Part shown: one piece after another, positions 1 through 23,287 of the stretch | How the letters are laid out: each line of letters starts with the position of its first letter | Numbering within the stretch: position 1 is the stretch's first letter | From: Dimargaris cristalligena | Taxonomy: Eukaryota | DNA: 54,886 bases | Assembly: GCA_003614675.1 (NCBI GenBank) | Contig: ML002261.1 | Coordinates: forward strand, 1-54,886 | Direction of reading: 5' to 3' | Notes under the pieces: generated by a model | What the model saw: only the letters and a program-made list of their open reading frames with translations | The model's database searches: none | Told to the model about the DNA's origin: nothing | Program-made: the position numbers and the translations under genes

Positions 1-700
1 ATATCACTCGCATTTATATTTGATATCATCATTAGCCAGATATATTCGTAAACTCATCATTATTTATCAACCCCAACAGTAATACTACGTAGGTTGAACT
101 TCAACCACTTTCTAAGTATAAATACCTTCAAGAATCGCAACTCTTAATAAAACATCTCTTTTTTCATTCTTCTGAACTGTACCGGCAGTTTTGCCTACAG
201 TTATCTTAGTTATTCTTAAAGTTCGACTTTACTATCTCTTTGATTATAAGGCATTCACGCCTATTACTATATTAGTCACTCTGCCACACCACAACATAGC
301 TATAATTGAAGAATGGCTATGGTATTTCACACCAAAGAATAACTCTCGGTGCTCGATGGTTCGATCCACAAACCTGCCCCTTTTTACCAGAGAAGCCGCG
401 GGTGGGGTTTGCCCTATGCTTGCATTTTATTGGATAGCAGTGTGAGTAGGTTTAACGGCATCCGTTGAGTTATCAAGCCCCTCACTACGAAAATGAAAAT
501 AGTGAGCTCAACACGGGTAAACATGTCCGCATTCACTTTCTACTATTCGCCAGGACTTATTTTTCCACTTGTACAGGGCTGCTGGTGTGTATCCCCTACT
601 CCACCATTCGTCAACTATTATTCCTATTTATGTATTTTTTCAAACTACTTGGTCTGCCTCCGCTTCACATTTGTCCCTATAACCACTCACGTTCAACCCG

Positions 701-3084
701 ATGCTCGAGGAAACGGTTTCTCCGAATTCGGACCCCAATGGAAATGAGGATAAAACTCCGCGTACGTTAACGCGGGAACATCTCTACCAGCTCCGCGAGC
801 GAGTCCGTCACCAAAAACTGCAAACCTTCATGACCTTGGAAGCCGTCGTGTCCGAACAACTCGATGTAATCCAACCCTCCCCGCCCCACCCCCGTATGGA
901 GCTGCGCTCGCCTCCCCAGCCCCCTATCTCACGTCATTTATCCCCCGTCACGCCGGCCCCTACCGATGGGGAAAACACCTCACCCATTCCAATCCTTTAT
1001 ATTTCCAACGACTACCATGCCTTATCATCGGCGGGGGAACAGTCCGGGTCTAGTCCCTATGGGTCGGATTTTTCCGGTGCCGATATGGATTCACCACCCG
1101 ATGATCTAACGGAAGTCATATCCTTTTTACCGTTTGAAAGTCCGGCCGTGCCCGATTCATTAGGCGGTAGTTCTTTTATAGCCGTGGTACCGCGTACCGG
1201 CAGGCCGCCAATCCCCCCGGCGGCGACGGCGGCGGCCACTTTGAGCGTGGGGGGGCAGCCTGCCATAGTGAAGGATTCCCCCATCACTCCCGTATTCCAA
1301 ACATTTCAACCCGGCCGGAATCCAACCCGGGCCGCTATGTTCATGACGAGAGGCCGCCTTACCGCAATAGCAGCAGTCACGCCTCTCGTATCCAAGACGA
1401 TGACCCACCCGGCTCATTCTACGACGGGATTCCATACGTTGAATAACCGGAGCGATAGTGGACCAGATGCCGATGCCGCTTCGGATACTGATGAGGATAC
1501 TTCGTCCCCACGGCGGGTTCAATTTGTTATGCCACCTGTATCGCAAGAATCCGCTCAATTAAACAGTTTGGACGAGCCTGTCGCTCCTTCGTACGGGACT
1601 CGCACCTCTATCGACGCTTCCGGAGTGCATTCTATGCATACCACTACCAAATTGCAGCTGCCATCCACCATCAATTTCATGACTACCCCTCAGGCCACCA
1701 ACAGTCGAATCCCACGCCCCGCCAGGTTACCGACTGCGCCCAGTCGTTGTTTTTCCGAACCTTCGGCACAACTGCCCGCTAACCTTCGTGATAATAATAT
1801 TGGTCCCGCCATACCCGAGAAAAATAAAACAGTCGACCTGGCCCCGACTCATCCTATAGAACGACCACCTCCATCCCATGCCTTGCCTCCACTACCGGTT
1901 ACCACCTCCCAGTCTAAGGCAGCGAAGACCATGCCCTCACGCATTGAGCAACGGTTGCAGCAACGCCAGGACTTAAATCGAGCCCGACTGGAAATCGAAT
2001 CACTCCAACTCGATCTACTTAAACTACAGGCCCAGTTTAGGGAGCGTTCACGGGAATTTCAGGATACTCTTGAACAGGCCGAACATGATCTAGCCGAAGC
2101 CCGGGCGAAAAATACCACCTACTTGGAAACGATTCACGACCAGCAGGTTCGAATTAATAACCTCATCCATGAAAACCGGCTATTGCAAGGCCAGAGGGCT
2201 CAATCGGAAATTCCGCATATAGTTTCAGGGCCCCGAGTCAACCATACTGGGTTTGGTTCCGCTGACTACATATCCCCCGCATCGGCGCTACATCAGCCGC
2301 CTATTCACGCAGCCCACGAGCATACCAGTGAGGGTCGACCAATTCTGTCATCAACGTGGCAAGCGCCTTCTTTCGGGATGACCAGTCCTTTCTCGGAAGG
2401 GCGAATATCCAGTCCCGCATCAATGCCGGACCATAGCCAATGGGAACCCCAACGCCAGGCGCTAACGAAGGCACTAGCCCAGCTGCAACTGTCACTCGAC
2501 TTTGTCAAGGTAAGCACCGTTGTGTTGATGTTTACTATGCAAACCTTAACCGAACCCCCTCGCTATGGGGAACATCTCATAAGTATTATTTTTTTCTTTT
2601 AGCGTGAAATACGATCCCTACAATATGGCAAGTCCAGATTTTGATTTAATGGGATGCCTCGTATTTAAGCTATGCTCCAATGCATTTTTGGATTCTACTG
2701 AGCTAATTATACGCAAATGCTTCCACCTTCCTATAAATTGGTTACTGTGCGATGTAGGAAAAGTGCCATGCCAACGGAAAACTGGAGCGCGAAATGGGCG
2801 ACGGATCGATGGTCCAAGCGTACCCCGACGGCAATGTCAAACTGTCGCTCGTGTGTCCACCTACAATAGCCATCGTATTCGTCAATGGCGATACATCCAA
2901 GACTCACCGCGATATGGGCTGGACCGAATATATGTATGCAGCCGACCAAATCAGGCATACCCGGGGTGGTAAGCTCGACTTTGAATACTGGGAGTATTTG
3001 CAATTGGGCTTCTGCGAAAAATGGTTCCCTGATGGGCGCCGGGAGCGGATTGAAGGCTTACACCCGCTGGATAGCTCTAATTAA
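701..3084 (+). CDS. SAS-4/CPAP (CENPJ)-like centriole protein: long disordered region, coiled coil, short C-terminal TCP10_C (G-box) domain
   Basis: Exon 1 701-2509 ends at a phase-0 donor AAG|gtaagc. Simplest model: intron 2510-2757 (branch gctaat ~2702, tag acceptor), exon 2 2758-3084. The joined C-terminus EKCHANGKLEREMGDGSMVQAYPDGNVK...IVFVNGD...YMYAADQIRHT...EKWFPDGRRE has the repeated (P)DG/NG beta-hairpin pattern of the CPAP TCP domain. A heptad-rich coiled coil lies at ~aa 410-500. A possible microexon at 2603-2627 makes the exon structure uncertain. Confidence 0.75.
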
Positions 3085-3335
3085 TTTGGTTATCTGTATA
3101 GGTGATTACTCATGGTCTCATAGCATTTGAATCAACCCGAATCGGGTTTGGTAAGATCCTATTTATATATATATATATGTTTTATTGCACGTGTACTATA
3201 GTTCAATCATTAAGATGTCTGGGGCGTAAAACAATCGAATTTCTTGGTCAATGTTGCTTTTGAACCGATACTTTATAAATACGTTTAGTATGAAGTTCGT
3301 AAAATGGGTTATCCAGGTCAGTAGAGTAAAGGGGT

Positions 3336-10645: not shown

Positions 10646-11809
10646 TCACAGCTGGGTAAAAAGCTCCGGATCTTTTGTTTGTAGTTTGGTGACATATGCC
10701 GAAAGCTGCAGGTCGAATTCGTCTTTGAGAGTGTCGGCATTGGCGATTAATGGGAACTTGCTGAATCGTATGTAAGGTGACGCCGTATCCACTAGGTTTC
10801 GTAGATCCTCACATTGGTGACCTTGGTTATTGGTGAAGGCATGTAAAATAAACTTCTCCCCGTGGCCATCCCAGTCAATGGCGTAGAAGTAGTGGGGCTC
10901 GATTTCCGCCTTGGTTGATGTGAAGAATCGGGATAATTTACGCTCAAATTCGTTAGTTTGGTGGGGGACCCCGGAGTACTTCAGAAATAATATCGATTTA
11001 ACGTGGGAGAAGTAGAGCGATATTTGGCTATTAAGGTTAACTCGAAGTCTTGGGAGGAATTCCGTCGATATGGTCGATTCGGATAGTGGCGGGATAGGTA
11101 GTTTAGGGAAAATGCGGTGGGAGAGTGATTTACACGCTTCGATACTACTTTCCACGGTCCTTGTCTGCGATTTGCGGTTTCGTTTCCGTTTTTTAACGGG
11201 AGGTGCGGATTCAGGGGTGGGAGAGAACGGCGTTCGCTGTGGAGATGAAGGGACCTGGTCCTCGGGTGGGATGTGGGTAACCGTTTCTTCGGATACCAAA
11301 TGAATGGATGAGGTGTCCCCCGTGCTGGAGTCACCGTCCCGGGGGGATGCCGGCCAAAGGGAGGATTCGGGTAGGGATGGCTCACTTGGATTTGGCCACG
11401 GTGGAAGGCTGGTTAGTAATGAGCTGGGGGCTAATATCGAATAGATTTCCGGGTCGAGTGTAAAGATATCATCATTACCAGGAAACGGCAAACGGTCGGT
11501 CCGGAAGGTCTCATCCCAGTGACTCATGCCTACATCCGTCACCAGACTAGGATTATCCAACGATGGCGCCGGGGGTGGTGGTAGTATATCGCTGTGGCCC
11601 TGAGCCATCGCTGTGAATAAATTGAGTTCAAACGATTGGTAGTTGTTGTCCAAAAGACGCAGTGATTCTTCCCAGGATGAGGCGACCGTATCCGAGATAC
11701 GGGCTCCAAGGTTGCTTGAAAGCAGATATGGCTCTTGTTGATATTGACCGGCTGCGGTTATACTGTCGAATTCCGCCACCAATAACCCCATTAAAAGCAA
11801 GCATCTCAT
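10646..11809 (-). CDS. Hypothetical secreted protein with acidic N-terminal region, Pro/Ser linker, basic NLS-like motif and ~150-aa folded C-terminal domain
   Basis: Single-exon 387-aa ORF in AT-rich flanks. Hydrophobic N-terminus MRCLLLMGLLVA...ITAAG; PPVKKRKRNRK at ~11171-11203. Confidence 0.7.
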   Translation of the reverse strand: MRCLLLMGLLVAEFDSITAAGQYQQEPYLLSSNLGARISDTVASSWEESLRLLDNNYQSFELNLFTAMAQGHSDILPPPPAPSLDNPSLVTDVGMSHWDETFRTDRLPFPGNDDIFTLDPEIYSILAPSSLLTSLPPWPNPSEPSLPESSLWPASPRDGDSSTGDTSSIHLVSEETVTHIPPEDQVPSSPQRTPFSPTPESAPPVKKRKRNRKSQTRTVESSIEACKSLSHRIFPKLPIPPLSESTISTEFLPRLRVNLNSQISLYFSHVKSILFLKYSGVPHQTNEFERKLSRFFTSTKAEIEPHYFYAIDWDGHGEKFILHAFTNNQGHQCEDLRNLVDTASPYIRFSKFPLIANADTLKDEFDLQLSAYVTKLQTKDPELFTQL

Positions 11810-13726
11810 TATAACAAAGTAGTGGTAATGTTTTTGGAGGAAAAGGCACGAAATAATTACATCAAAATATAAGGTGAGTAATAATAATAATAACTAGGCT
11901 ACCGCGGCTGAATAGGATTTTCGAAGGTAGTGGAGATGATTAATATACAGGCAGGGGAGCCGCCTAAATGACGTAGGTATTTATTAGGATAATGGGCTCG
12001 ATGAAGTTGAGTCGAAAATATGAGTATGGTTAGCTGGTAGCTAGCCCGGACCGCGTGCCATGATATAAGGCACAATTCGAATGACTCTTATATTCTTGAA
12101 CAAGGAAATTAAACAGGCGGCGCCAATGTGATTGGGCCATGGCTGATGCGCAGTCAAACGCAAAGGCCCTTGACCCGTAATGTTGTACTAGAAATTCTAA
12201 AAGGGGAAATAGGTAAGGTTGGGGAATATATGAAGTCTCAAGTTTCCCCCTTATTGGGATTTAAGCTGCCAAACCAGGAAAGGGAGGGGGGCCCAACTAA
12301 GGCAATTCTAATATCGTACCTCGCCCTATACAGGGGAGGGCCAATTTACCTGGAGGTTTTTGGCGCGGTATTTTATATGGAGGCCACACTGGCGTGTACT
12401 ACGAGATTGGGTATAGTCCAGTACAAAGCCAGTCACCTGAGGCCGTCACATTTGCGGCTACCATTCTGCAACCAAAGGGACTGTTATATGGGTGTTACAT
12501 GGTCAAAGTGTGATTGAATCTTTCTCCCCATTATCCACCAGCCTCCGCCAAAAGAGTTTACTGGTCGCCCATCCACCTGATTTGGCCTGCGTTTCATATT
12601 TGGTATTGTTGGGCAATAAATAGGCAAATTCAAGCCCGGGCGCTAGATTAACCCGATAACAATTCAAGGAGCACAAGCCGCCACTTGCCGTATTATTATC
12701 TAGGTGGTATAAAAATAAAGCCGACCCCGCATAATAGGCCCTAGTTATGTGGCGGGTCCCTTACTAACGTTGCGATAAAGTGATCATAGGGATACCGGGG
12801 GCATTTGAAGATTAGATAGGAGATAGAAAACCATTTTGTCTAGGTTTTTTCACCTTTGCTGTTGGGTTTAAAGGTAAATACACATGTGAACTAAAAAGTC
12901 ACAGTACAACACCAAAAAAAAAACGAGCAACCGGGGGTAAATTCACTAATAAATCATGAATAATGGTCTGGTGGGCTGAGTCGGTGGATCTTTAGTTCCC
13001 CAAATCATAATTAAATCTGGTCTCTACTCCCTTTCCAAGTATTATTAAAGACGGCATTGCCTTAGCTACAGTACCTTTATATGGCTACGGTAGCTTACTT
13101 GTTGGGGATAGACGGGGTTCGTGATACCATCCTCCCGCATTTACCCTATGTGTATAGTAATGGGGCGGTTTTTTTCAATGAGGGGCTTTGGGCTGGCCCA
13201 ACAATTGTACTACAGGTATGGACCGAGCGATATTTATGATAGCAGCTGGTCCTGTCTCAGAATAGCCCTGGAAAGGGGAAATGAGAGGATCCCATAGTTC
13301 ATGTTTTGGTCACAGACAGGCTGCGGCGCTAATAGCGGTTAAAGGTGAACAATGTATTTGTCTCTACAACTCTCATTCGTGCTTCAATTAGGTAGACGGA
13401 GAATAAAGGACAAGGAAATAGACACAAAAAAGTCACATCCTTCCCCCACGAGTCGAACTGGTCTTAAGTCACGTGATTGGACCATTCCCCTATAGTAGCA
13501 AAGGAATACCACTTGGGACTCGCCAGTGGCTGTGGACAATCCATTAGCGAATTGGTAAACAATGTCCCCTGTTGTTTCATGGACCCATTCCAACTGACAA
13601 GACCCCATTAGCAGACATTCATTCTACTGACACTTTAAACGTTATTATCTCGAACTTGCTACCCCCGCACCCCTATACATTTATTCATTTATCTAAATAC
13701 CCGAAACCTGTCGCAATCGGCTCCAC

Positions 13727-16968: not shown

Positions 16969-19834
16969 CTACTCCCGGGGAAACGGAATGCCAACAGGAG
17001 GGGGAGTAGCCCAGGTTTTGCTACTACTGCTACTGGTGGACGGTGCCTCCGTTGAACCACGACTCTGACTAGATGCCCGGGTGCTAGATAGGAATGTGCG
17101 TAACACAGGCCGTTTGCCAGCATTGTCGTTGTCCTCGGAAGGAGGTCGCCACGATCCACCCATGGGGCGGGACTTGTTGTTACTGGCCTTGATAACCAGA
17201 ACCTTATGGCCACTCGAGGCAGCCGGAGCAGGCTCTTCGGGCATATCCAGTTTCAGCACAGGTACCAAAGAGGGGAAGAGTCGGTGCTAAAGTAAGAGAA
17301 TCAGTGAAAGAAAAAATAGAATAAAAAATAGTCGAGTAAGATTAGAATGCCATGTCTTTGGATAATTCAACAAGTCTCCGAAGTGAAGATGGCCGCAATA
17401 GATTAAAATACGTCTCAAACTACACGATACTTACCATCAGATTGTGATTTTTCAGTTCGTACAACAGACGCTGGCGTTTATCGGAATCGTCCAAAAGTTT
17501 GGCAACGGCCTCCACGGTATTGTCGAAGAACTCATTAATGTCACCCGAAGTCTCCATCTTCATCAGCGACCAGAGTGCATTGATATAATCCTCCTCAGAC
17601 AAAGTGCCTCGCCGAAGTTCGGTGGTTAAAGAGCGGAATTGGCTGGTTTTGAATTCGGAGTGGTTGAAGAACTTGCCAACTCGGGCCAGAACCCCGGCGT
17701 GGCTCTTAAGGATGGCGTCCGACATACCGGTGGTATTGTTGCTGTCGGGAGTGTTACCGGAGCTGCGACTCTGGCCGTTGGTCGTGGGCTTCTCCGGGAG
17801 GGGGGTGGCAGAAGCGGAGCGATCACTGGCGCTGCCGGAGGACTCGGCGGGCGCCTTACCCTTCTTAGTCTTCTTCGACTTGGCCTGTTGGTTTCCACTG
17901 GAATTACCCGATTGATTGGCAACCGACACATTAACCCCCCATGACGAGACCACCGTGCGGTGTGATGCCTTCGGAGCCTTGGATCGTGGGGCGGGGGCCA
18001 AAGCAGGCCAGTCATTCAGAGCGCTCTGGTTATTGGCGTAGCCGCCCTGGAGAATAGCTGATGCAGAGGGGACGGCGGGCGTGGCAGAAGAAGGAATTGG
18101 TGCATTTTTAGCTGGACGTGGCTGAGCCCGAGCGGGAACGGGAGTGGGGGCGATAGTCTCTATGGGGGGTTCCACCGTGAGTTGGCCGAAACCGGCGGGA
18201 GCCTGTCGGTGTGTCCGTGGCTCAGGGGCGGTCGGTAGAGGCTCTGTAGCATTGGGGAGGTCTTCGACAGCGAAGGTGGGAAGGCCGTGGGGATTTTGGA
18301 CTCGCTCTTCCGCGCGCCCTTGCCGGCCACCACGACGTTCCCGGTTCGGTCCACCAGAGACACTAGGGTAGGAAAAGTCGACATTGATATGCCTATTTTG
18401 GCGGTTGGTCGACCGCTTACTGGCGCCTGGGGGCAAGTGCTCCTCCAGCATATGTGCCTTCAAGTCAATTTCGGAGTCGAAAACGACAAACTTCTTCTCT
18501 AGGCATTCAGGCTTGTTGCACACAAAATGGGCCTTGTGGAAGTGGTTCTCTAATGCCTGGTAGTTGCGGTAGTACTGCTGCCGCCCTTGGCCATTATTGA
18601 CACAAACAAAACACTGCTCGTGACGTTCTCGACAATGATCGAAAAGAGCATCATTGTCGTAAAAAGCACGGTGGCAGAATTCACAACTAGGATGCCCAGT
18701 AAAGCCCGTTTTATCACCCTTACGGTAGTGGGCGGTCAGCTGGGGTTTGCTGAATAGCCGGTGCTCGTGGGCAAAGGCCTTTTTAAAGCGCATACACAAA
18801 TCACACATGTGCTTGTCATGCTCGTCGGCAGTGTGTTTCTTAAGCTCAGCCCAATCACTGTCGGTAACATACGAACACCCACGCCATTGGCACCGGATGC
18901 TCAGCAGGTCAAAGGATGAATCAGCAACCTCCTGGGAGCAAAACCGAATGCCCAACTCATCGTCCCGGCAGGGGAGGTCTTGGTCGTTATACTCGGCGTA
19001 GCGTTTCCCATCGGGTGGGACTATTATGACGTTGTCCAGTTCAGTCTGAAAACGATTGGCAAATAGCAATAGTCAGTTTAGGGGTTGATTAGATATATAG
19101 TGGTGAATAATGGGATCAGAAGGAATTATAAGCAGCTGATGCAAGATTGACATCACAATTCCAGAGAGTGCCTTAGGGGTGGAGTGAGGGGGTACGTAAA
19201 ATAGAGCAGTACAGCCCACTATTTCTTTAGAAAGAAACTGCGGGGAATGATGAGGGGGCGATAGGCTGCGGAAATAATAATCCTTGGGGAAGGGTCGATT
19301 GGATGGAAGAAAACGAAATTCTTTGGAACACTAGCCGATTAAGGGGATAGGAATAGACTGGGTTTCCGGATGGTATTACAAAGGGTTGGTCAGTATGGGT
19401 TATCAGATAGGGGGACTTACTTTGCAATAGGGACATGCATTATTTTTATACAGAGCACGAAGTCGCAGAGTGCAAATGTGGCAAGTGGGGTGATCGCATG
19501 ATCCCATGGCCTGGTACTTGATGGGATGGGTGCAAATGATACAAACGTCACTGTCATCGACTTCCGGTGTCTCCTTGGGGGCCGCCCGGGTGCCAGTACG
19601 GGCTTTCCGGGGAGCGGATTCACGTTTCCCAGATCGGCTCTTGGGGGGAGCACGGGGGGAGGAGTTATTTTTGGTCTCACCCGATTCTCCACCCACGGCT
19701 GCTGACGCGGCTGCAGTGGCGGGGGCCTTGCCTCGGTTGGAGGACTTGCATGGTCCCCCTCTAGAGGCTGGACGGGACTTGCCGCCGCTCGATCCAGTGG
19801 CTTCGGTGGGCTGCTGTGACTCGGGGTTAGACAT
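16969..19834 (-). CDS. HEL2: RING/C2H2 zinc-finger E3 ubiquitin ligase Hel2/ZNF598 (ribosome quality control)
   Basis: Exons 19834-19421 (RING CIIC...CDHPTCHICTLRLRALYKNNACPYCK), 19045-17435 (C2H2 fingers: CDLC..FKKAFAHE, GHPSCEFC..AFYDNDALFDHCRERHEQCFVC, HFVC..CLEKKFVVFDSEIDLKAH) and 17286-16969. Donors are gtaagt. The 3' end is less certain. Confidence 0.92.
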
Positions 19835-21646
19835 GGAGAAGGAGAGAGTCGACTTCGGAGGGGAGGGATGATACGGCGTGGGTATACCGGTGAGAGGGGA
19901 GTCGCTGGTCGGAGTAGGGCGATTTGGCGCCGAGGGGGGTGACTTGGGGCCCTGCGATGAACACAAAAGGTGGGGAGCGGGAATGTCGAACAGGAAGCGA
20001 TGGGATGGGTGAAAAGGAAGCTAGGATAGAGGTGTGGCGATGAGACCAAGGGGATCGTGGAGTCCGGGATAATCCAATCGATGGGAGTAGATCAGACGAA
20101 TAGGAACAAAATATGGGGGAATTCGGGTGGAAATAGGGCAGGGAAGACGAGGGTGGGTGAAGAGAGAGTGAGAAAGAGGGGGGGAGGGAGAGAAAGAACA
20201 GAGGTGAACAGCAAAAGAAGTGGGGAAGAGGTTCAGCCCAGGTGTGGTTTGAGTGGGTGGAAAAGTGAAAGGTTGAAGCAGTGAGTAACAGCAACCAGTG
20301 GCCAGTAGTCTCGTTAGTGCTTAGTGAAGGGATAAAGGTGAATAGTTCGTTGAGAATGGAAGACTTCCACAACCTGATTAATGAGTGAGTAATCAACAAA
20401 GAACGAGGTTATCTAGCCCAAGGACCGTTAAATAGAAGTAAATACTATTCATGTAAGTCGCCTACTTTGGTATAGTTTATATATATCTGTACTTACCCCG
20501 GGTATTGTGGACTCAGCCCATTTTATTACATATGGTTCGCTATAGCCAGCATGAACCACGTGCCATCTCCCTGGGCTGTCTGTCGTTTTTGGAAAACTTC
20601 CGTCGGTCAACCGGCTGCTGACGCCTTGGAGAGTCGCTAAATACACCAAATATTGGCCATCCGCAGCAACCAATGTCACCCCGCCTTGAGCTCGAATAAT
20701 ATGCCGCTGGTGGTCATGAATCAGATACAATCTACTCCTTGGTGACTAATGGCAAACGGGCCAAACGAAAACGAACACCTAGGATACAGGAAAAACCCTC
20801 ACTCAAGTCAGGGACCACCACTTGCCCCGAAAGAGAGGGGTGGTCAGCCAGTGCCGCAGCAGCATTTTCACCCCGCTCGTGAGTACGGCTGCAGTCACAA
20901 AGTGGAGACAAAAGGCGGCGGGGGATACACCAGCGCCAAATGCCCGCTACTCATGACGACGCAGCACTATTATAATGAAGGCGGTATGAGTAGTAGTTTC
21001 CCTATGCCAATCCACCGACCACCAACTATACCAAGAGGTGACTCGTGAATTTCGAAGATCACACACCAAATGTATAAGTAAATATATAGTCAAGACAATT
21101 GGATTCAAGATAGAAAAGGAAGGAAAAGTCGAAGACAGCGGCTATATCGCCCTCCAGCAACCAAAGTTGCCTATTTATAGCGTCTGAATTGTTGGTGTGG
21201 GCGCAGTAAATGGGGGGACAGTCAGCTCTCAATGTATACTGGTAGCAGGCATATATTCAGTTCGCTATAACAATCCCAGAGTAAATGCTTATGCCTCCAC
21301 CCCATTGGTGGATTAAGAATTTCCCAAATTACTCCCCACCCCACACAGAAATCATGATTTTCATACTTAAAGATTGCAGTCAGGATTGGGAATGCAAACC
21401 GGGCAATTGGTAGCTTCGACAATACACCCTACCAGCAGGTTCTCTTACAATCTTACTTTTACTAAACATAGAATAAGGGGGAGCATGTCTCAGGTAAAAA
21501 AGTTACTGAGCCGACAAATGGGTTGTGATCCTTGGAATCATCAATTCGATTGTGATATGGGACCAACGAAGGGAATGGTATGAGACGAGATGCTCGCGGG
21601 TTTCAAAACTCGCCACGGTATCATCATTCTAGTACTTGGACTTGGC

Positions 21647-23287
21647 TTACTGCTGTTGCTGTTTTTGCTGCACTTGGACTATGAGCATTTGAATGTCTCG
21701 GACCATCTCCGGCTCGGTTCGGTCTGCAATAAAGGCTTCAAAGTCGACCTCATCGTTACCAATGCGCGTGGCTTCTTCGTCCAGCTGCTCTACATTCGGG
21801 TCATTCAGCCCCAGCGTAACGATAGGTTGCCCAAATTCACTCTGGTTCGAAAAGTATAGCCAGACGTTGGCCGGGAGAATAGGCTGGTCATCATTCGTGG
21901 GCCCGGGGTAATAGTCTCCCATGTCGAAGTTCCACTGCTGGGCCAGCCAACGGGCCGCTTCTCTTTGGCCGATATCTCGGACATGATCCACCAGTTCAGC
22001 TTGATCCAGATGTTCGACCATAACCACCTGTCCGTCGTTCATAGTACGGGACTCCGGGATCCACATATGTTGCAGAGGGTCTAATAGTTCAGCCTTCCGA
22101 TACACTGCAGCCATAGCCAAGGCGAGTCGAACGTACCGATTGTACACCCGCGCATCCTGCTCCTGATTGCGTGGCAAATCACCCACGGCGTGGTAGAGAG
22201 TCCGTACTTCCACCAACAGGTCCTGCAAGTGTCCGGCCTGGTCCGTAGATACGTACTGCCATATCAGCGTAGCGGTAATTTTACCCAAGACCCGTTCCAT
22301 CCATTTATCGTACCGTGTCGCTTCGTCCTGTCCCGGGTACCAAGTAGCCGCCCAAATGCGTCGGCGAAACCCCTGGTCCAAGGCCAGACCTTCCAGTACC
22401 CATTGCCGGGTTTGGGCACTAAATACATGGCGCAGCAACCGGACTATATCCGAGGAGGGCCAATTAGTAGCCAGGGGTACCATGGGCAGAATGCCGGTGG
22501 CCGCCCCCACAGGCAGACTGCTGAGGTTGATGATACTACGGGCATTCCGCTCGGTTAAAAGATTCTCGTTACGGGTTAGGGCTAGGAAAGCCACGTAGTT
22601 GGCGTGATTGGGCCGCTGGTCTAACAACGGCAAATGGGGATTAGGCTCACTGCCGAATAGCTCGCGGTGGGCTAAGTGTTCCCCCCAGTTTTCGTAAGCG
22701 GCTTCTATCAGGGCGGACCAGGTCTCATAGCCAAACAAGGCCAGCCAAGTGTCCGCCAAGTTCAGTTTGTCCGCATCTGTGGCGGGCGTTCCCTCCACAG
22801 CTTTAATAAACGCGTCCGCCATAAGAGAAGCCTGATTTCGGTGGAATTAGATAGAGGCGGAAGTGGGGGTCGGTAAATATAATCTAGATTATTAGTCACC
22901 CGCCTATTGCGGTGAGTAGGTTCCGCATACTCATTAATGTAACATTCAATTATTAGTATACTACGTTATGAAAACCCAATGCCTCGTCGAACTGGGCCGG
23001 TTTAACCTTTTATCAAGTGAGGGAGTATGAATGTAAATAGTAATACTACTCTCGCTGCTACTTCCCGGCCGAGCAGTGGCTGTCTTCCCGGTCAAACGAA
23101 AGTATTGATTGACTTTATCCAATTGAGTCTTGTCATTGACCCCCAGATACCCCGAAATCATGGAGACTGTTTCACGGGGCAGACTGACCAGGCCCCGGCG
23201 TTCGACCATGGGCCTACTCGAGCACTGGAGGGACAGAAGGGCCAGAGCGGTCAAGGACAGGAGGTAAGTGGGGCGTAAAATAGCCAT
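21647..23287 (-). CDS. Putative secreted F-box-like protein (signal peptide, F-box-like motif, ~390-aa helical domain ending in poly-Q); junction between the two ORFs unresolved
   Basis: 5' ORF from 23287: signal peptide MAILRPTYLLSLTALALLSLQCSS, dibasic ERR, then LVSLPRETVSMISGYLGVNDKTQLDKVNQYFR. The 3' exon has branch ctaat and a phase-0 acceptor cag| at 22831, leading into the 391-aa ORF 22822-21647. No canonical donor in the matching phase was found; a small middle exon (VKPAQFDEALGFHN, ~23007-22966) or a frameshift is possible. Confidence 0.55.

Follow-up and report, generated by a model that had tools for sequence, protein, structure and literature searches.

The Gene at the Locus

We analyzed a 54,886-nucleotide (nt) stretch of Dimargaris cristalligena DNA (contig ML002261.1, positions 1 to 54,886, forward strand; hereafter the window), which near its left end, at 701–3084 (+), carries a gene that an earlier first-pass annotation, made from the letters alone, had read as a relative of the centriole protein SAS-4/CPAP. 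An ATG at 701 opens exon 1, whose frame runs through 2509 (+; window sequence and open reading frame list) and spans 1,809 nt; because this is 603 whole codons, the splice junction is in phase 0. A 248-nt intron follows at 2510–2757 (+; GTAAGC...TAG), with the donor GTAAGC at 2510 and the acceptor AG at 2756–2757. Exon 2 is coding over 2758–3081 and closes with a TAA stop at 3082–3084 (+), behind a shortened G-box domain and at the same point as in the orthologues. The spliced product has 603 + 108 = 711 amino acids (aa). If the intron were kept, the frame would meet a stop at 2600–2602, ahead of the G-box.

A search of a large protein collection with exon 2 gave a single match (100% identity over 100% of the query), P0001, which is the NCBI entry [quoted passage not shown] and has the same length as the window product, 711 aa. 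Read over their full length, the two differ at one residue, in the part encoded by exon 1: V508 in the window and A508 in P0001. In alignments, orthologues are collinear over the exon 1/exon 2 junction, and removal of the intron restores collinearity. Of five DNA runs, two were compared, and their contigs cover 601–3300, intron included, collinearly and with 0 indels. The two data sets differ at two bases. The first, 2223 (T>C), is nonsynonymous (V508A) and lies in a disordered linker; the second, 2889 (C>T), changes GGC to GGT synonymously within the NGD turn of the G-box. P0001 has the A508 form, from which it follows that D. cristalligena is represented by two strains or assemblies. The splice of 2510–2757, as first proposed, has GT..AG ends and phase 0 and is supported by homology, through the collinear orthologues, and by independent annotation, through the 711-aa P0001; the two-exon gene appears real and intact.

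Homology and Fold of the C-Terminal Domain

The last ~100 aa of the protein (residues 604–703; 2758–3057, +) show homology, on the evidence of sequence searches, to the N-terminal half of the G-box, or TCP domain, of CPAP/SAS-4. A phmmer search of PDB sequences with exon 2 found seven distinct sequences at E ≤ 10, and the best five of these seven are CPAP/Sas-4 G-box chains: from zebrafish, 4bxp (E 1.4e-9), 4ld1 (1.8e-9), and the E1021V mutant 4bxq (9.9e-9), and from Drosophila Sas-4, 4mpz (1.5e-4) and 4by2 (2.9e-4). The alignment pairs exon 2 residues 4–96 with residues 9–98 of the 192-residue chain, the first half of the G-box. A family profile made from five Dimargaritales proteins reached E-values of 4.9e-16 for zebrafish CPAP and 2e-10 for Drosophila Sas-4, and with the phmmer alignment it covers chain residues 5–100 of 192. 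This profile scored 49.3 bits on the first half of the G-box versus 8.8 bits on the later repeats, and the alignment therefore keeps register with the G-box instead of reflecting repeat similarity in general. The motifs HANGKLE, FVNGD, YMYAADQIRHT, and EKWFPDGRRE all lie in exon 2, and N43, G44, D45, Y58, and Y60 are invariant in 45 of 45 aligned family and canonical sequences. The likeness to the first half of the CPAP TCP10_C domain that had been seen by eye, with its named motifs, is thereby confirmed by both the phmmer and the profile searches.

Structure prediction gave a concordant picture. AlphaFold2, run with a 45-sequence alignment that included canonical CPAPs, modeled the half G-box as ten consecutive strands in a single-sheet β-meander (predicted local distance difference test score, pLDDT, 93; predicted template modeling score, pTM, 0.78), so that the half domain is predicted to be a free-standing ten-strand unit. 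Each of the 11 matches that Foldseek found for the model in the PDB at E ≤ 0.001 was a SAS-4/CPAP TCP chain, the best being 4mpz (query template modeling score, TMq, 0.75; root-mean-square deviation, rmsd, 1.6 over 91 columns) and 4bxq (TMq 0.76, rmsd 1.5). The single-sheet β fold anticipated by the first reading is thus what the model shows. Neighbors of the C-terminus of the Dispira orthologue in the ESM Atlas were Tcp10_C and centromere protein J clusters, both by features and by structure.

It might be argued that the protein does not descend from SAS-4 at all and is a MORN-like or other β-hairpin repeat protein that came to resemble a G-box by convergence or repeat composition. MORN and ciliary β-meander proteins do occur lower in the Foldseek list (E 0.007–0.05, beneath all CPAP chains) and among the structural neighbors in the Atlas, and the score against the Pfam Tcp10_C model lies under the gathering threshold (discussed below). 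We nevertheless regard this origin as very unlikely, as the similarity to CPAP extends in register over ~95 residues, not repeat by repeat, and at a profile E-value of 4.9e-16, no MORN Pfam match was found in P0001 or its relatives at E ≤ 1, and the five residues of the NGD and YxY positions are invariant across family and canonical sequences alike.

Truncation of the G-Box

According to the accessible text of Cottee et al. (PMC3776556), the G-box of zebrafish CPAP (residues 937–1124) consists of ~20 strands. The Dimargaris G-box has ten in the AlphaFold2 model versus ~20 in the full-length domain, and a tblastn search with eight G-box queries found no second half encoded in the window: the best match of each of the eight fell within 2758–3066 (E 8.9e-8 to 0.083), and nothing elsewhere in the window matched at E < 0.2. 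From the stop codon to the next gene, RNase_PH on the minus strand, is only 251 nt. All five other Dimargaritales proteins examined (from four species) end 9–17 residues past the same PDGR motif. We consider the short G-box genuine because of this 251-nt gap, the lack of a second half in the tblastn search, and the shared end in the orthologues. The half-length domain described in the first-pass annotation was accurately read, and the comparison indicates that the short form is ancestral and not an artifact.

The loss of half of a domain is also what would be expected of a decaying relic or a mis-annotation, either a pseudogene in the course of losing its G-box or an exon 2 that is not joined to exon 1. 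We hold this to be highly improbable. The same short end recurs in five other Dimargaritales proteins from four species, conservation within the protein is highest in the G-box, the frame is intact without a single indel in two DNA data sets, and the orthologues run collinearly over the junction.

The STIL/Ana2-Binding Edge

The contacts between zebrafish CPAP and STIL are described in the accessible text of Cottee et al. (PMC3776556). F978, Y996, and F1015 pack on prolines and Y994 makes a cation–π interaction; H1003 and T1005 belong to a water network with STIL; and Y994, Q1019, and E1021 make side chain–main chain contacts. Affinity drops 20- to 37-fold in F978V, Y994V, and F1015V and 8-fold in E1021V, a residue that corresponds to human E1235, itself a STIL contact and a microcephaly site. 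The second half of the G-box alone is reported there as insufficient for strong binding.

We mapped these residues onto the window protein through the phmmer alignment (chain index = residue number − 932, as verified at index 89, where 4bxp has E and the mutant 4bxq has V). Six of the eight published STIL-contact residues are kept: F978, Y994, Y996, H1003, and E1021 align with F, Y, Y, H, and E, respectively, and F1015 aligns with Y, which we counted as kept. The other two, T1005 and Q1019, are replaced by R and F. The codon for E690, the residue aligned with zebrafish E1021 and human E1235 (PDB alignment, 4bxp versus 4bxq), is at 3016–3018 (+). Y661, Y663, H670, and E690 are invariant in five of five Dimargaritales proteins, and in the family alignments the positions aligned to F978 and F1015 are aromatic in every case. 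These alignments show that the aromatic and acidic edge that clamps the proline-rich CR2 of STIL/Ana2 in animals is retained, with the primary STIL site in the kept half, and that the glutamate of the EKxxPDG motif was correctly placed on this face from the start.

An internal ligand for the G-box, a STIL-type PRxxPxP motif within the protein itself, was considered and rejected, as the motif is found in only one of 29 family members; the ligand is for that reason probably another protein. The conserved linker motif SP-x-TP-x-F, described below, is not a motif of the STIL type.

The N-Terminal Region, Linkers, and Coiled-Coil-Like Segment

Exon 1 (701–2509, +), which matches P0001 but for V508A, encodes an N-terminal helix, a P/S/T-rich linker, a coiled-coil-like segment, and a second linker. 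The helix is a predicted amphipathic motif conserved in the family (residues 23–53; 767–859, +) that aligns without gaps over 29 Dimargaritales and Kickxellales proteins, and it contains QTFMTLEAVV at residues 41–50 (nt 821–850). The letters QTF..LE themselves are limited to Dimargaris and Dispira; neither Tieghemiomyces nor Kickxellales conserve them.

Residues 52–410 are rich in Pro (15%), Ser (12%), and Thr (10%). The Dimargaritales alignment shows two order-specific conserved motifs in this linker, SPxTPxF and PRRV, the first of which forms part of a longer SP-x-TP-x-F-(R/Q)-x-(L/F)-x-P motif in the disordered linker at residues ~192–210 (1274–1330, +). A putative coiled-coil-like segment follows at residues ~412–500 (1934–2200, +). 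A crude heptad scan found proline-free heptad-like windows at 419–491, with equivalents in the related proteins P0002, P0004, and P0005, and 21 weak PDB profile matches at positions ~300–382 (E 0.014–10) include the coiled-coil proteins keratin and TRIM72.

Relatives, Distribution, and Host

D. cristalligena belongs to Kickxellomycota, Kickxellomycotina, Dimargaritales (NCBI taxonomy), and the accessible text of PMC8371127 describes Zoopagomycota as nonzoosporic, in a clade with one inferred loss of the flagellum. The non-flagellated host assumed at the outset is therefore upheld, and the possibility that the gene is merely an ordinary possession of a flagellated, chytrid-type fungus does not apply.

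A HMMER search of 1.84 billion representatives with P0001 retrieved four proteins at E ≤ 0.001 including P0001 itself, all from Dimargaritales; the other three come from Dispira parvispora, Tieghemiomyces parasiticus (with a second protein in the same cluster), and Dimargaris xerosporica. A G-box profile from four species found 12 proteins, adding Dispira simplex ("Transcription factor tcp10"), several Coemansia, and Dipsacomyces. A wider profile found 52 proteins, of which three are from Dimargaritales, 31 from Kickxellales (Coemansia spp., Kickxella alabastrina, Martensiomyces pterosporus, and Dipsacomyces acuminosporus), and 18 from other sources, among them frog, quail, and turkey CENPJ/CPAP, brown algae, diatoms, and metagenome proteins. 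Cluster look-ups added dozens more Coemansia strains, and one cluster is the "T-complex protein 10 family" of Ostreococcus tauri. Each of the two G-box profile searches scored ~8000 word-sharing candidates and recovered no chytrid, a scope that provides no evidence that other fungi are without the gene. The T. parasiticus proteins, P0003 and P0005, lie on different contigs and are nearly identical where shared; the N-terminus of one is 198 aa shorter than that of the other. A recent duplication, a pair of alleles, or a gene model that was cut short could account for this.

Identity to the window protein is 41%–46% in the G-box versus 28%–36% over whole proteins. In a 68-column unrooted tree, which is poorly resolved, the Kickxellales sequences form one branch (Shimodaira–Hasegawa-like approximate likelihood ratio test, SH-aLRT, 99) and the canonical sequences another (99), with Dimargaritales between. 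The Kickxellales proteins share with the Dimargaris protein the N-terminal helix motif, a short C-terminal G-box, and within it the motifs NGK, AYPDGNVK, (F/Y)xNGD, and YxY. They differ in length (about 320–540 aa), in lacking a long coiled coil, and in having conserved motifs of their own, SPPxSFLExFTRxF and RLEWVH; some carry the automatic name "Centromere protein J C-terminal domain-containing protein." Their G-box has one hairpin missing or shifted, many have one or two extra C-terminal strands, and the alignment of the last third is ambiguous. We regard them as a sister subfamily. Given that the short form is found in all sampled Dimargaritales and that a sister subfamily exists in Kickxellales, the family is old and maintained by selection.

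The first of these Kickxellales motifs, in its fuller form SPPxSFLExFTRxFVxxYxP, is strongly conserved at residues ~60–90 of P0007–P0049. By eye, SFLEGFTRNF resembles the SAC core FLKRGEGLTRF of CPAP; HMMER did not detect this resemblance and the Lys-Arg pair is absent, and we make no claim for it.

Could a sequence this unexpected in such a host be a contaminant, or a gene acquired horizontally from a flagellated eukaryote? The surprise of finding it is the sole point in favor, and we assign the idea next to no probability: the gene sits in a 55-kb stretch with ordinary eukaryotic housekeeping genes, it is seen in two DNA data sets, and the family occurs in two fungal orders, with the sequences grouping by order.

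Sequences of the family are already in public databases, where automatic annotation has named a few of them "Centromere protein J C-terminal domain" or "tcp10." We found no report of the gene family in the literature on centriole proteins or flagella in these fungi or in non-flagellate groups; in the accessible portions of PMC10079182, PMC10386755, and PMC7865070, loss of the flagellum is the sole related content.

A Possible Role at the Spindle Pole Body

In comparison with SAS-4/CPAP/CENPJ (4bxp, 4bxr, 4mpz, 4by2, 4ld1), the Dimargaris protein shares the C-terminal β-meander, homologous in register, and the six STIL-contact residues with their E1235-equivalent glutamate; Dimargaritales members also have a putative coiled-coil-like segment upstream of the G-box, and the remainder of the protein is long and disordered. 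Apart from the absent second half of the G-box (~10 strands against ~20), the differences are the PN2-3 region (LID and SAC), present in SAS-4/CPAP and not detectable here, the size (711 aa versus 937–1185 aa for vertebrate CPAP), and the host, which is without centrioles or flagella. A possible connection with centriole-like structures comes from a fungus of the same subphylum. The spindle pole body of Coemansia reversa is described in the accessible text of PMC6070874, citing McLaughlin 2015, as containing a cylindrical ring with nine microtubules and of unknown molecular composition. This is an ultrastructural observation. The proposed link to the kickxellalean centriole-like ring is strengthened because relatives of the gene occur in many species of Coemansia, the very genus of the ring.

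With confidence that about equals our doubt, we favor the reading that the gene encodes a pared-down descendant of SAS-4/CPAP that serves as a scaffold for a proline-rich partner, most likely at the spindle pole body or another nucleus-associated microtubule organizer. The coiled-coil-like segment would probably dimerize the protein, and the half G-box would dock the proline-rich partner, which might be novel or might be a STIL/Ana2-like protein that has diverged. The conserved N-terminal helix and the linker motifs may tether the complex elsewhere. At the spindle pole body, the protein may build or stabilize a centriole-like remnant of the Coemansia type.

Several considerations weigh against this reading. 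We know of no ultrastructural description of the spindle pole body of Dimargaris. Pfam Tcp10_C (PF07202), a 35-residue repeat model with a gathering score of 36 bits, does match exon 2 (22.4 bits, E 9.3e-5), as the first-pass annotation expected; the match stays below the gathering score, as does that of P0001 (14.3 bits) and, in fact, those of six of the six Kickxellomycotina proteins tested (14.3–34.1 bits), and eight canonical proteins score 70–167 bits. The fold match adds evidence that is only partly independent of the sequence homology, because both the training of AlphaFold2 and the alignment supplied to it included CPAP. Nor is a Tcp10_C domain alone proof of a centriolar role, because it occurs in other architectures, such as those of P0053 and P0056. 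O. tauri is an alga not known to bear flagella, and its "T-complex protein 10 family" member P0112, a Tcp10_C/G-box protein from a different kingdom that clusters with canonical G-boxes, provides a precedent for retention of such a protein where there is no flagellum. Finally, centriole-biogenesis proteins are missing from the sampled non-chytrid fungal genomes, as stated in the accessible text of Ito et al. 2019 (PMC6559791).

To these must be added the N-terminus. A likeness of QTFMTLEAVV to the tubulin-binding core of PN2-3 had been suggested at first reading, and the searches did not support it. Pfam PF25779 (Tubulin-bind_CPAP) had no match in the Dimargaris protein at E ≤ 10 or in the family at E ≤ 1; it is present in three of the 45 aligned proteins, all vertebrate. 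The tubulin-binding region of turkey CPAP, searched with phmmer --max against 56 proteins, gave E ≥ 1.1 to every family member, and a hidden Markov model of the N-terminal motif gave a best E-value of 0.32 against 19 other G-box proteins. The key tubulin contacts listed in the accessible text of Sharma et al. are F338/E339/Y341 (LID) and F375/K377/R378/F385 (SAC), and we see no persuasive equivalent of them in the Dimargaris protein. Aligned by eye, turkey KQTFEEFVEEQ and Dimargaris LQTFMTLEAVV have just the Phe in common with respect to F338/E339/Y341. We treat the PN2-3 likeness as unsupported because only this Phe is identical and because conservation of the letters does not extend to Tieghemiomyces or Kickxellales. 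The protein thus appears to have no detectable PN2-3 tubulin-binding region, a region central to SAS-4 function in animals. Of the original SAS-4/CPAP interpretation as a whole, then, the SAS-4-type half G-box, the non-flagellated host, and the STIL glutamate stand, and the PN2-3 motif is unsupported.

The main rival to the spindle pole body is co-option, in which a SAS-4-derived domain has become a proline-motif-binding or fibril-forming module in some Kickxellomycotina-specific role that is in no way centriole-like. The undetectable PN2-3 is readily accommodated by such a history, as is the want of similarity to CPAP in the remainder of the protein. The middle region in Kickxellales differs outside the N-terminal helix and the G-box and has no long coiled coil, G-box repeats are known in non-CPAP architectures, and the absence of centriole-biogenesis proteins reported for sampled non-chytrid fungi in the accessible text of Ito 2019 (PMC6559791) is in keeping with it as well. 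Against co-option, the best-kept residues are those of the STIL-binding edge, the taxonomic range coincides with the one fungal group that has a described centriole-like ring in its spindle pole body, and no positive evidence points to any other role. We therefore see co-option as possible, though rather unlikely. Sequence conservation, the surrounding genes, and E-values obtained in register all tell against the pseudogene, contaminant, and convergent-repeat readings.

Within the spindle pole body reading, a more specific proposal can be made, tentatively and with more doubt than conviction: that the Kickxellomycotina have a minimal SAS-4, made of a dimerizing stalk and a STIL-binding half G-box, which is a component of the nine-microtubule spindle pole body ring. 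If this is true, Kickxellomycotina would be living intermediates of the transition from centriole to spindle pole body, the half G-box would be the minimal functional unit in the link between SAS-4 and STIL, and a remnant of this kind could do without the tubulin capping of PN2-3. The Kickxellomycotina protein, conserved and derived from SAS-4, is a first candidate component of the centriole-like ring of Coemansia, and through it the replacement of centrioles by the spindle pole body in fungi can be studied on a concrete molecule. The family may also be regarded as a natural truncation experiment on the G-box, in which evolution kept the primary STIL site and lost the second half.

Genomic Neighbors and Other Observations

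The other genes of the window include those for an RNase_PH exosome subunit, a DnaJ protein, ZNF598, a coronin-like WD40 protein, an AP sigma subunit, UPF3, a PPR protein, DOT1, an EamA transporter, and MCM5. Two long open frames, at 10646–11893 (−) and 21647–22846 (−), encode 415 and 399 aa and have no Pfam match at E ≤ 0.01. Among the G-box proteins outside the fungal family, the JGI/ENA proteins P0053 and P0056 combine Tcp10_C repeats with a CAP domain (PF00188), and P0055 combines Tcp10_C with SLBB and CopK domains. An (AT)n-rich stretch at 3160–3185, in the intergenic region 3′ of the gene, is partly overlapped by a second, unrelated contig of one DNA run. The ZNF598-like gene, for a ribosome-quality-control E3 ligase, occupies 17420–20020 (−) and is apparently split over at least two exons, with the RING domain at 19403–20020 and the C2H2 and PAH domains at 17420–19072.

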